Part shown: positions 18,001 to 21,000 of the stretch, piece by piece
Position numbering within the stretch: the first letter of the stretch is position 1
How the letters are laid out: each line of letters opens with the position of its first letter
Assembly: GCA_963677495.2 (NCBI GenBank)
Contig: CAXXOU010000004.1
Coordinates: 192,001-256,000, forward strand
Length of the DNA stretch: 64,000 nucleotides
Origin: Candidatus Cloacimonadales bacterium
GTDB taxonomy: Bacteria; Cloacimonadota; Cloacimonadia; Cloacimonadales; JAFGVF01
Direction: 5' to 3'
Made by a program: the position numbers

Positions 18001-21000
18001 GAATCTGTGGTGTATAATGGGTAGGGGAGACCAGGTTAATGTTGTGTACACCATTATTTTGTAGTTCAAGCATTATTTTTACAAGCGCTGATATGGTGAT
18101 AGGTTTACCATCTCCCTGTTGACTTATTTGCCAGTTTTGACAGAACACACAGTGCAGGTTACAATTTGAGAAGAAGATTGTACCACTGCCGGAAGAACCA
18201 GAGAAAATAGGTTCTTCTCCAAAGTGTTTTTGATGCAGGTTATATTTGATTTGTTCAGTACTGTTACAGTTACCGGTCGTAGCGTATCTATCAACTCCAC
18301 ACTCATGTGGACAGATTTTACAAGCTTTTAGTTCCGTGAAAAGCTTGTCACTCATTTAAACTGAAGCTCTCCGGTAATAGTTTTTTGATTGAAGTGACAT
18401 TACTTTGAGAGTTGGACCCATAGATAATCTCTACATCATCGCTAAACTCACTTATAACTTGTCTACAAGCTCCGCAAGGAGGAAAGGGTATCTCAGCATT
18501 AGCAAAAACTGCTAGCTTCACAATCTTCTTTTCTCCTGCTGAGATCATTTTAAATATGGCTGTTCTTTCTGCACAGTTTGTGAGTGAATAAGAGCTGTTC
18601 TCAACATTACAACCAGTATAGATATTGCCATTATCAGTTAATACTGCAGCCCCAACCTTGAACCCTGAATAGGGAGCATATGCGTGCTGGGAAGCTTCTT
18701 TTGCTAGCTCGAGTAACTTTGTGAGTTCCATATTTTCTCCTTAGCTTAGAAGTGCAAGGATGATTCCACCTGCAACAACTGACCCAATCTGCCCTGCAAC
18801 ATTAGCGCTTACGGCAGGCATGAGTAGGAAGTTGAACGGATCTTCTTTTAATCCCATTTTATGTATGACACGGGCTGACATTGGGAAGGCTGAAATTCCA
18901 CATGCACCAATCATCGGATTTATTTTCTTCTTAATAAACAGATTCAAGAGTTTTGCAAACAGCACACCACCGGCTGTGTCGAATATGAAAGCAACCAATC
19001 CAAGGCACATAATGAACAATGTCTTTGTTTGAAGGAAATCCTCTCCTGTCATCTTGGTTGCAATAGCAATACCCAGCAGGATTGTAACAATATTGCCAAG
19101 TTCCTTCTGTGCAGTTAATGATAATGATTCAAGCACACCACATTCTCTTATAAGGTTACCAAACATGAGGAATCCAATAAGCGCAGCTGATTCCGGAGCA
19201 ATAAGCCCTGCGAGTAGCGTTATCATAATAGGGAAGATAATCTTTACTGATTTAGGTATATCACTTGTGTTATAATCCATACGGATCTTACGCTCTTTGC
19301 TGGTTGTAAGTAGTTTTACCACAGGTGGTTGGATAATAGGTACTAAAGCCATGTATGAGTATGCAGCTACAGAGATAGGACCTAAAAGGTCTTTAGCAAA
19401 CTTTGAGGCTACATATATAGATGTTGGACCATCAGCTGCACCAATAATGCCTATTGATGCTGCTTCTCTGATAGGAAAACCGATTAAAGCAGCCATAGAG
19501 ATAGTGAAGAATATACCGAATTGGGCTGCTGCACCGAACAAGAGCATGAGCGGATTGGTTAATAATGGTGTGAAGTCAATCATAGCACCAATAGCGATGA
19601 ATATCAGTAAAGGAAACAACTCATTGGCAATTCCAAAGTCAAACAGGACTCTCATAGCTCCATGAGGGCTTATAGTTCCCACAAGCTCAGCCATGGGAAG
19701 ATTTGCCAGTATTGTACCAAAACCAATAGGTAATAGTAAAGCAGGCTCATACTCTTTCTTGATTGCGAGATAGATTAGTATGAAGCCAATCAATATCATA
19801 ATTGTACTTTTAAGCTCAATCGCCATTATTCCACGAAACAATTCCTGCATATATTCTCCAATAAAATCAGTATGAATTCACTTTTCTAATCACAGTAAAT
19901 TAATCAATGTATTTTTTGTATTCTTCCATTATCTCTTTGGGTAAACGAGTTGGGCGCCCATTTTTAACAAAAGCACCAAATACAGTCAATGTGCTACAAA
20001 GATCATTATTCTGATTATAAATCTCTTGGTACCAACGACCTTTAACTCTATTTAACTCCTGAATATGAGTCTCGATTCTTATCTTTTCACCAAAACATAC
20101 ACCTTTTTTATAGTCAAGCTCTACACGTATAACAAATATTCCCATCTCCAAATCACTAAGCGCATGGATTGAGTACTTGGTCTCATCCAATGCTTCACTT
20201 CTTGCCTCTTCATAAATCTGAAGATAGTTTGCATTATTCATATGACCATAGATATCACATTCATACCCATAAATCTTGCGACTATATGTAAATGCCATTT
20301 CATCCTCCAAAATATTATCTTTTAGTGTTTCATATATGTAATAAGGGATGTTGTCAAGGAATGTATTTATTTTATGGAGTGCACCAACTGTGTAGGTGCG
20401 TCTTGTCACACAACTCTTAGATGAGTCCTTCAGTACTCCTGGAAGTATCTGACAAACTCCATGAAACAGATCTCTACCTAATTATCCTCCAAATTTTCCC
20501 TGCTGGCGAATTTTCCCAATTTTGCACCAATTTTGCCCTGCTTCATCCCTTCCGGTTCCGTGACTAAAAAGGTGTTTCAAAGGTAATCCACAGGTGACCC
20601 TCTCGTGACCCTCTCGTGGAAGGCCTCGAATTATCCACATGATGTGGATAACTTGAATATCTATGAAAAACTTGTCGTAGTCACGCGACTGGAAGGGATG
20701 CATAAGGCTTAGTTTTCGATAAACAATGTAGACTTATAAATGGTGAAAGGGTTGAATGTGAGTTTAGCTACTAAGTTGATACAATAGAAAAAAGCTGTTG
20801 AGACATCTCAACAGCTTTAAATGGTGCAGAAGGCGGGACTTGAACCCGCACACCCAGATTAGGGCACAAGATCCTTAGTCTTGCGTGTCTGCCAATTCCA
20901 CCACTTCTGCGTAAAGTTTATTCAGTTGGAGCAGGAGTCTCAGCCGGGGCTTCAGTTACAGGAACGACTGCATCTGTTGCCGGAGCTTCTTCAGGAGCTT

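Follow-up and report, generated by a model that had tools for sequence, protein, structure and literature searches.

Which tRNA reads the leucine codons CUU and CUC in this member of the Cloacimonadales, and how did that tRNA come to carry an A at wobble position 34? The window analysed here, by which we mean the whole stretch of 64,000 nucleotides, contains a tRNA-Leu gene with the anticodon AAG, which lies among the following features:

20822-20910, minus strand: tRNA-Leu(AAG) gene, 89 nt, type II (ARAGORN, Rfam RF00005 and cloverleaf drawing)
20867..20883, minus strand: anticodon arm of tRNA-Leu(AAG), CAAGA-CUAAGGA-UCUUG (from the sequence)
20791..20818, minus strand: intrinsic terminator, a 12-pair hairpin plus T run, directly 3' of the tRNA-Leu(AAG) CCA (consensus scan; seen in the sequence)
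20918..21268, minus strand: secG, 116 aa, separated by 7 nt from the downstream tRNA-Leu(AAG) (TIGR00810, 55.6 bits, cut-off 30.85; PF03840, 58.2 bits)
21390..22391, minus strand: trpS (tryptophan--tRNA ligase), the upstream neighbour (NF009207, 484.9 bits)

The tRNA-Leu(AAG) has a regular cloverleaf with a long variable arm, a CCA encoded in the gene, and A73, the discriminator base that serves as an identity element for leucyl-tRNA synthetase (LeuRS). It matches RF00005 at 20825-20910 with 55.8 bits (gathering score 29), and ARAGORN and Rfam reproduced the cloverleaf, variable arm, encoded CCA, length and score given in the initial annotation of this DNA. A34 corresponds to window base 20876 (T on the plus strand), and the public contigs of four sequencing runs, all from one sample and study, carried no alternative letter at this base. 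Those DNA-like run contigs come from several related strains and break at the tRNA, and their differences are confined to the variable arm (20856-20861).

ARAGORN found 50 tRNAs in the whole genome (3,408,260 bases in 4 contigs), with UAG, CAA, AAG, UAA and CAG as the leucine anticodons and no tRNA-Leu(GAG) among them, which bears out the earlier proposal that tRNA-Leu(AAG) is the sole tRNA for CUU and CUC. Leucine codons, counted in a proxy gene set of 2,421 long ORFs, amounted to CUU 27,501, CUC 7,788, CUA 11,036, CUG 7,255, UUA 23,872 and UUG 11,489, nearly equal to the previous counts from 2574 genes; CUU is the commonest leucine codon of this genome, the GC content of which is 37%. The analysis of 20 highly expressed genes revealed CUU 111, CUC 39 and CUA 3 among 268 leucine codons, so that CUU and CUC together account for 56% (this genome alone) and the share of CUC rises from 8.8% genome-wide to 14.6%. 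In these genes the CUN box ranks U>C>>A, just as the inosine-read arginine box does (CGU 110, CGC 26, CGA 2), and the ratio CUC/(CUU+CUC), 0.22 genome-wide and 0.26 in the highly expressed genes, lies inside the range of the G34-read boxes.

The same tRNA is found throughout the phylum. An anticodon-arm pattern, allowing at most one mismatch, matched 198 of the 232 Cloacimonadota genomes, including 144/151 of high quality; the matches covered 60 of 66 genera, and none of the 17 families lacked one. It gave 216 matches in total, of which the 150 listed were examined; nearly all of these had the anticodon arm unchanged, while G025 and G146 matched only with strings that are not AAG. A second pattern, anchored in the D arm, matched 194 of the 232 and added G059, G063 and G064, which bear a compensatory stem change. 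The union of both patterns places tRNA-Leu(AAG) in about 199 of the 232 genomes, and all 29 of the exact-arm loci that were fetched proved to be full tRNA-Leu(AAG) genes. Among the 33 genomes without it, 28 are less than 90% complete; the other five (G035, G077, G172, G190 and G219), 93-99% complete, have neither the AAG gene nor a native GAG gene.

Genuine tRNA-Leu(GAG) genes were recovered by two independent patterns in two of the 232 genomes (G077:C56 and G196:C42). Neither has an encoded CCA or lies behind secG, and 0/7 and 0/5 of their flanking ORFs had tblastn matches in our genome, compared with 5/12 at a native locus; the contigs look foreign. Several other candidates were discarded. 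The GAG-type matches in G100 and G101 are the arm of tRNA-Glu(CUC) on the opposite strand, which also disposes of the GAG-type arm that the initial annotation had ascribed to G101; no tRNA was present at the GAG candidates in G025 (L023) and G086 (L180), at five of the eight matches of one GAG pattern, or at second 'AAG' arms in G073 (L045) and G080 (L046), and the GAG candidate L038 is a tRNA-Ile plus a tRNA-Ala. The data support the replacement of tRNA-Leu(GAG) by an A34 tRNA-Leu, fixed across the Cloacimonadota, and extend to the whole set what had been seen in 40 of 41 sampled genomes.

Is this state peculiar to the Cloacimonadota? It had been presented as a second origin of a strategy otherwise bound to the Lactobacillales, a view that does not hold: the concluding remarks of PMC13249217 already name Mycoplasma and Prochlorococcus as bearers of tRNA-Leu(AAG), and we verified at least 79 such genes, spread over no fewer than a dozen phylum-level groups. 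The loop was CUAAGGA in all of these verified genes, Streptococcus included, under a search pattern that itself fixed C32 and A38. The Fermentibacterota have the G34 and the A34 state on the same secG locus and the same tRNA backbone, the loop being UUGAGGG in 7/7 GAG genes and containing A38 in 22/22 AAG genes. In the Verrucomicrobiales, at the level of patterns in 141 sampled genomes, UUGAGGG was found in all 35 GAG genomes and A38 in all 67 AAG genomes. The A34 leucine tRNA is thus a known type of which the Cloacimonadota are an additional case; we found no account of their tRNA-Leu(AAG) in the literature, where published genus lists could already name Cloacimonas.

We then asked whether A34 is likely to be converted to inosine. 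The genome has a single TadA gene (G000:C2:53895-54344, 151 aa), which scores 175 bits against NF008113 (cut-off 150) and can be aligned with E. coli TadA (1z3a) over the full length of both. The second TadA/CDA-like protein reported before is most likely the product of the window ORF 41621-42136, which resembles ComEB/dCMP deaminase and reaches only 35 bits against the TadA model, where the cut-off is 150. The canonical substrate of TadA, tRNA-Arg(ACG), which becomes tRNA-Arg(ICG), is a tRNA of another amino acid and class than tRNA-Leu(AAG), with a different body, but the two share the 11-nt core GACU-A-N-G-GAUC: loop and closing pairs read GA-CUACGGA-UC in the arginine tRNA and GA-CUAAGGA-UC in the leucine tRNA, and position 35 (C or A, respectively) is the sole difference. 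Among the 50 tRNAs, only Arg(ACG) and Arg(CCG) match the core GACU-NNN-GAUC of tRNA-Leu(AAG) at 8/8 positions; the remaining leucine tRNAs match at 6-7 of these 8 non-anticodon positions, so the likeness is in part family background.

According to PMC8216470, TadA contacts only nucleosides 32-38. PMC11066159 reports that E. coli TadA partially edits an AAG anticodon only if the loop is that of the arginine tRNA, with changes at 32, 37 or 38 blocking the reaction, and positions 32, 33, 36, 37 and 38 of tRNA-Leu(AAG) are the same as in the arginine substrate, as editing in that study requires. Inosine-34 has been demonstrated on the tRNA-Leu(AAG) of Streptococcus pyogenes and S. mutans (parts of PMC11472039 and PMC13249217). 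The widened TadA that the initial annotation had invoked is not needed a priori, since the loop differs at position 35 only, and no TadA signature of it was found. TadA sequences of the Fermentibacterota (7 from GAG and 12 from AAG lineages) were aligned with those of E. coli, this genome and one other member of the Cloacimonadota, and no residue state separated the AAG lineages from E. coli. The test was weak and underpowered, with 11 of the 32 loci fetched for it dropping out, among them those of Streptococcus, Akkermansiaceae, Prochlorococcus, Hydrogenedentota and Sumerlaeia. In the Fermentibacterota it is the TadA of the GAG clade that is more divergent (109-121 bits, against 124-150 bits in the AAG lineages). 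The Arg-like loop, the single canonical TadA, the retention of CUC in highly expressed genes and the coupling of A34 to A38 make TadA-made inosine-34 on tRNA-Leu(AAG) plausible and, in our judgement from the genes, the most likely state. Alternatively, the 32-38 pair could have been adjusted for binding to the ribosome, and the coupling would then not reflect recognition by TadA.

A competing explanation, which we consider improbable, is that A34 remains unmodified and reads CUU, and CUC weakly, with tRNA-Leu(UAG) reading CUC by four-way wobble and the change from G to A being a by-product of AT-biased mutation. An AT-rich genome in which CUU is the commonest leucine codon would fit such a scenario, and A34 genes are not always edited, since excerpts of PMC8072771 describe Oenococcus oeni Thr and Ser tRNAs with unmodified A34. 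Moreover, an ordinary TadA may not suffice, because E. coli TadA left S. pyogenes tRNA-Leu(AAG) unmodified in vitro, as stated in part of PMC11472039. Against this, CUC is not depleted either genome-wide or in highly expressed genes, while CUA, the codon of tRNA-Leu(UAG), is nearly gone from the latter, and a bare A34 strongly favours U over C in a passage of PMC11066159. Our search of the genome found neither CmoA nor CmoB, making it unlikely that cmo5U on tRNA-Leu(UAG) covers CUC. In addition, the A38 coupling and an arm that is invariant in about 199 genomes suggest selection on the loop, and drift alone is unlikely, given that Cloacimonadota with larger genomes also have the A34 state fixed.

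Where did the gene come from? Its position provides an answer. secG lies upstream of the tRNA-Leu gene, on the same strand, in 37 Cloacimonadota loci, families f14-f17 included, and the arrangement trpS-secG-tRNA-Leu recurs in several distantly related Cloacimonadota, with trpS matches beside secG in L001, L049, L051 and L052. In families f16 and f17 and in one named MAG, tRNA-Arg(ACG) follows tRNA-Leu(AAG) after 10-22 nt, so that both A34 tRNAs stand in tandem in the basal families of the phylum. E. coli K-12 has the same order of secG and tRNA-Leu, secG and then, on the same strand and after a gap of 14 nt (7 nt here), leuU, which encodes tRNA-Leu(GAG). Both are type II tRNAs for the same codon family and are 75% identical, but the loop is UUGAGGU in leuU (U32, G34, U38), whereas the Cloacimonadota gene has C32, A34 and A38. 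The shared position next to secG identifies the gene as the leuU orthologue with G34 changed to A34, and by analogy with E. coli secG-leuU the two genes are probably co-transcribed here.

The Lactobacillales offer the closest parallel: O. oeni, S. pyogenes, S. mutans and S. pneumoniae share its anticodon and, in the genes verified here, Streptococcus included, its loop CUAAGGA, the GAG isoacceptor has been replaced, tRNA-Leu(UAG), tRNA-Leu(CAG), tRNA-Arg(ACG) and one TadA occur alongside, and CUU and CUC are favoured. Editing has been demonstrated in that order and is predicted for the Cloacimonadota, a different phylum. The TadA of S. pyogenes has a C-terminal extension, according to part of PMC11472039, and the 151-aa Cloacimonadales protein has none; likewise, the leucine loop and the resident arginine loop, which differ at position 35 only in our genome, reportedly do so at both 35 and 37 in S. 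pyogenes. Horizontal gain of tRNA-Leu(AAG) from the Lactobacillales or another A34 lineage, displacing a native GAG gene, seems very improbable to us, even though Lactobacillus and some Clostridia, Sumerlaeia and Planctomycetota loci have an identical 17-nt anticodon arm. The gene occupies the ancestral secG position throughout the phylum, whereas those of Streptococcus and the Lactobacillaceae lie behind isochorismatase, GATase or SprT-like genes (Pfam); its body is 75-76% identical to the Streptococcus and Lactobacillus tRNAs, an identity that E. coli leuU equals; GCAGAAG as acceptor stem is common only to members of the phylum; and in the Fermentibacterota the change from G to A arose in place on one backbone. 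The independence from the Lactobacillales that the initial annotation had assumed is therefore upheld.

A defunct relic or a product of misassembly, in favour of which the rarity of A34 in bacteria and nothing more would speak, can be set aside with near certainty: the cloverleaf is regular, the CCA is encoded, a terminator follows, about 199 independent assemblies contain the sequence (genus g12 with a compensatory stem change), the public contigs of the four runs show no other anticodon letter, and the tRNA is the sole reader of the commonest leucine codon.

The explanation that we consider likely is that a leuU-type tRNA changed G34 to A34 in place and is edited by TadA to tRNA-Leu(IAG). 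A point mutation in situ, in or before the common ancestor of the Cloacimonadota, would have turned the wobble base from G into A, and the GAG form would have been lost through that change. Leucyl-tRNA synthetase is not known to read the anticodon, so charging would be unaffected. As the layout and the E. coli parallel suggest, the transcript would be made with secG, ended at the hairpin terminator and freed by the usual tRNA processing enzymes. The single TadA, which must already deaminate A34 of tRNA-Arg(ACG), would most likely act on tRNA-Leu(AAG) too, because its seven-base loop equals the arginine loop except at position 35. The resulting tRNA-Leu(IAG) is predicted to read CUU and CUC well and CUA poorly, leaving CUA and CUG to be covered by tRNA-Leu(UAG) and tRNA-Leu(CAG). 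Eukaryotic tRNA-Leu(IAG) represents the same decoding strategy, an A34 gene replacing a G34 gene, but the eukaryotic deaminase, ADAT2/ADAT3, is a heterodimer blind to loop sequence, as a section of PMC9643335 states, whereas the only candidate enzyme in our genome is a TadA of the homodimer type.

In the usual picture, bacterial inosine-34 is confined to tRNA-Arg and tRNA-Leu(IAG) is a rarity of lactic acid bacteria. The results described above correct this distribution, since A34 leucine tRNAs occur in many phyla and not in one order, and add a deep-branching, mostly uncultured phylum in which such a tRNA is fixed at a locus with a gene-for-gene counterpart in E. coli leuU. They raise a wider possibility, to which we give an even chance: that the G34-to-A34 switch of the CUY-reading tRNA-Leu is recurrent and convergent in a dozen or more phyla, coupled each time to the gain of A38 in place of G or U, and often to that of C32 in place of U, so that the loop becomes a copy of that of tRNA-Arg(ACG) and an ordinary single-copy TadA gains a second substrate. 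The Cloacimonadota would then be the clearest case of phylum-wide fixation, their basal members having both substrates in one secG-Leu(AAG)-Arg(ACG) unit, and the Fermentibacterota and Verrucomicrobiales would provide the intermediates of a path from UUGAGGG through UUAAGGA to CUAAGGA. With both states present on one tRNA backbone, neighbouring phyla supply natural before-and-after pairs in which to study the loop positions required by TadA, any need for change in the enzyme itself, and the effect of inosine-34 on the choice of leucine codons.

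The assembly of the source genome (G000; 3.41 Mb, 4 contigs, 37% GC) encodes 50 tRNAs as called by ARAGORN, among which the leucine anticodons are UAG, CAA, AAG, UAA and CAG; tRNA-Arg(ACG) is encoded, and tRNA-Leu(GAG) was not found in the whole assembly. The AAG gene and the element behind it are located as follows.

window 20822-20910, minus strand: tRNA-Leu(AAG), called by ARAGORN
window 20818-20791: 12-pair hairpin and T run, behind tRNA-Leu(AAG)

The gene, of 89 nt, scores 55.8 bits against the Rfam tRNA model (gathering score 29). Its cloverleaf is regular and of type II; the variable arm is long, position 73 is A, and the CCA end is encoded. 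A34, in the wobble position, corresponds to window base 20876. Presence of tRNA-Leu(AAG) and absence of tRNA-Leu(GAG), as reported in the initial annotation, were confirmed by ARAGORN, Rfam and the tRNA set of the whole assembly. In the public, DNA-like contigs of four sequencing runs of one sample (X1-X4) a relative is far more abundant (depth 400-660 versus 14-23). Its tRNA-Leu(AAG) differs in the variable arm only (window 20856-20861), and the assemblies are interrupted at the tRNA-Leu(AAG) common to the relative and G000. ARAGORN also called a 96-nt 'tRNA-Cys(aca)' at window 51769-51864 (minus strand), in the intergenic gap 51656-52216. Since this stretch had no match to the Rfam tRNA model, and only a weak match of long-hairpin type (29 bits, E 0.002), it is probably a structured hairpin, not a tRNA.

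A secG ORF (TIGR00810, 55.6 bits; PF03840, 58.2 bits), with trpS upstream of it, ends 7 nt upstream of tRNA-Leu(AAG) on the same strand. In E. coli K-12, leuU, annotated as tRNA-Leu(GAG), lies 14 nt after secG. Given this order in both, the window tRNA-Leu(AAG) corresponds by position to leuU and is its orthologue, with A34 in place of G34. In 37 phylum loci with sufficient upstream DNA, the gene immediately preceding the tRNA, in the same orientation, is secG; these include members of families f14, f15, f16 and f17 of other orders. We regard it as nearly certain that the gene is a leuU orthologue that functions in reading CUY codons and is fixed across the phylum.

The 232 Cloacimonadota genomes were searched with a 17-nt anticodon-arm pattern that left position 34 free (N) and allowed at most one mismatch (150 of 216 matches listed). 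It matched 198 of the 232 genomes, 144 of the 151 of high quality, 60 of 66 genera and all 17 families; two of the matched genomes, G025 and G146, have non-AAG strings only. All 29 exact-arm loci fetched were complete tRNA-Leu(aag) genes, and those of five genomes of other orders were complete too. A second pattern, anchored in the D arm, matched 194/232 genomes and gained three (G059, G063, G064) with a compensatory stem change and the gene still behind secG. Both patterns united give tRNA-Leu(AAG) in about 199 of 232 genomes; 28 of the 33 genomes without it are less than 90% complete, and neither pattern found it in G035, G077, G172, G190 and G219 (93-99% complete). Two identical copies occur in G102:C26 (L043) and G127:C132 (L044), 126 and 505 nt apart, with a secG-like ORF between those of G127.

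tRNA-Leu(GAG) was sought in the 232 genomes with two independent patterns (T-arm and D-arm anchored) followed by ARAGORN, and real genes were found only in G077:C56 (L179) and G196:C42 (L181). Both have the loop UUGAGGU, are without encoded CCA and do not lie behind secG; an oligoendopeptidase F and a chemotaxis-receptor-like protein are encoded in their flanks. The flanking ORFs had no tblastn matches in G000 (0/7 and 0/5; 5/12 for a native locus), and the two contigs are probably mis-binned or foreign DNA; G196 carries tRNA-Leu(AAG) as well. The GAG-type arm initially annotated in G101, and seen also in G100, turned out to be the anticodon arm of tRNA-Glu(CUC) on the opposite strand.

Six indirect lines of evidence, given here and below, make editing of A34 to inosine by the resident TadA likely. 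Across the loop and closing pairs, tRNA-Leu(AAG) (GA-CUAAGGA-UC) differs from tRNA-Arg(ACG) (GA-CUACGGA-UC) at position 35 only, and among the 50 tRNAs all eight non-anticodon positions are common only to Arg(ACG), Arg(CCG) and Leu(AAG); part of this match is family background, because the other Leu tRNAs of G000 already match at 6-7 of the eight. According to a passage of PMC8216470, TadA contacts are limited to nucleosides 32-38. According to passages of PMC11066159, the E. coli enzyme achieves partial editing of an AAG anticodon set in the tRNA-Arg2 loop, and this editing is lost if position 32, 37 or 38 is changed; A34 that is left unmodified has a strong preference for U rather than C. 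G000 has a single TadA (175 bits, cut-off 150), colinear with that of E. coli and without a C-terminal extension; tadA runs right up to the 5' side of tRNA-Ser(CGA), encoded in the same orientation, and no nucleotide separates the tadA stop codon from the tRNA (G000:C2:53803-54344, outside the window). Two deaminase-fold genes of the window were ruled out as TadA:

window 18348-18731, minus strand: cytidine deaminase (NF004064, 157 bits)
window 41621-42136, minus strand: ComEB/dCMP-deaminase-like protein (133 bits, below the cut-off of 219)

In 20 highly expressed G000 genes, the CUN box is used as CUU 111, CUC 39, CUA 3 and CUG 28, and the inosine-read Arg box as CGU 110, CGC 26, CGA 2 and CGG 0. 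From the whole genome to these genes, the share of Leu codons rises from 8.8% to 14.6% for CUC and falls from 12.4% to 1.1% for CUA. Coverage of CUC by tRNA-Leu(UAG) through cmo5U is unlikely, because neither CmoA nor CmoB was found in G000. Members of the basal families f16 and f17, and one Cloacimonadota MAG, have tRNA-Arg(ACG) 10-22 nt after tRNA-Leu(AAG), placing the cell's only two A34 tRNAs in one unit behind secG, at these tandem loci:

L049: G210
L050 and L053: G211
L051: G229
L116: the MAG

In G203 (f14), tRNA-Leu(CAG), not tRNA-Arg(ACG), follows tRNA-Leu(AAG).

Species-representative genomes were scanned with a D-arm plus CUAAGRA pattern (C32 and A38 fixed, position 37 A or G), yielding at least 119 stretches; 80 were fetched, and ARAGORN verified 79 as tRNA-Leu(aag). 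Among the matches listed, verified genes belong, by record title, to Streptococcus, Lactobacillaceae, Vagococcus, many Clostridia, Mycoplasmopsis, Akkermansia and other Verrucomicrobiota, Planctomycetota, Hydrogenedentota, Sumerlaeia, Fermentibacteria, Prochlorococcus, Synechococcaceae, Alphaproteobacteria, Synergistales, Acidimicrobiales, a Deltaproteobacteria MAG, Lujinxingiaceae, a Prevotella MAG and Cloacimonadota. G37 is present in all 79 of these listed genes, and SecG (Pfam) is upstream, among the matches listed, only in the Fermentibacteria locus and in the four Cloacimonadota loci with enough flank. Whereas the Cloacimonadota gene follows secG, the upstream genes are isochorismatase or GATase genes in Streptococcus, SprT-like genes in Lactobacillaceae and Vagococcus, and SLT genes in Clostridia.

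In Fermentibacterota, 59 of 70 genomes matched, and a single tRNA backbone, linked to secG, is found in three forms: GAG (7 genomes), AAG with U32 (42) and AAG with C32 (10). The 30 loci fetched (L182-L211) have UUGAGGG in 7/7 GAG genes and A38 in 22/22 AAG genes. At pattern level, the 141 Verrucomicrobiales sampled have UUGAGGG in 35/35 GAG genomes and A38 in 67/67 AAG genomes (C32 in 55, U32 in 12; eight other rows lie outside these counts). Both groups present a graded series on one backbone (GAG UUGAGGG, AAG UUAAGGA, AAG CUAAGGA), A34 always occurring with A38 and G34 with G38. A34 is thus paired with A38 in two phyla besides Cloacimonadota. This pairing fits a demand of TadA; alternatively, the 32-38 pair may have been retuned for decoding.

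Cloacimonadota tRNA-Leu(AAG) genes are 79-91% identical within the phylum, in contrast to 75-76% with the Streptococcus/Lactobacillus AAG tRNAs and 75% with E. coli leuU, and their acceptor stem is common to phylum members only. Because of these identities, the phylum-only acceptor stem and the conserved secG position, the sequences argue for a G34 to A34 change that would have occurred in place, and disfavour transfer from Lactobacillales. The initial annotation, whose observation holds and whose interpretation is supported in part, had proposed an independent second origin besides that of Lactobacillales. Independence is borne out by the secG position and the identities; 'second' is not, given the many groups and PMC13249217, passages of which mention Mycoplasma and Prochlorococcus as carriers of tRNA-Leu(AAG) and suggest that the trait may be widespread. 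The origin is independent, one of many. Passages of PMC8007984, PMC8072771 and PMC8266599 tie bacterial tRNA-Leu(AAG) to Firmicutes; we found no mention in the literature of that of Cloacimonadota, and published tRNA surveys or supplements may include Cloacimonas. Systems of this kind are already known; what is new here is its phylum-wide occurrence with an unusually clear ancestry.
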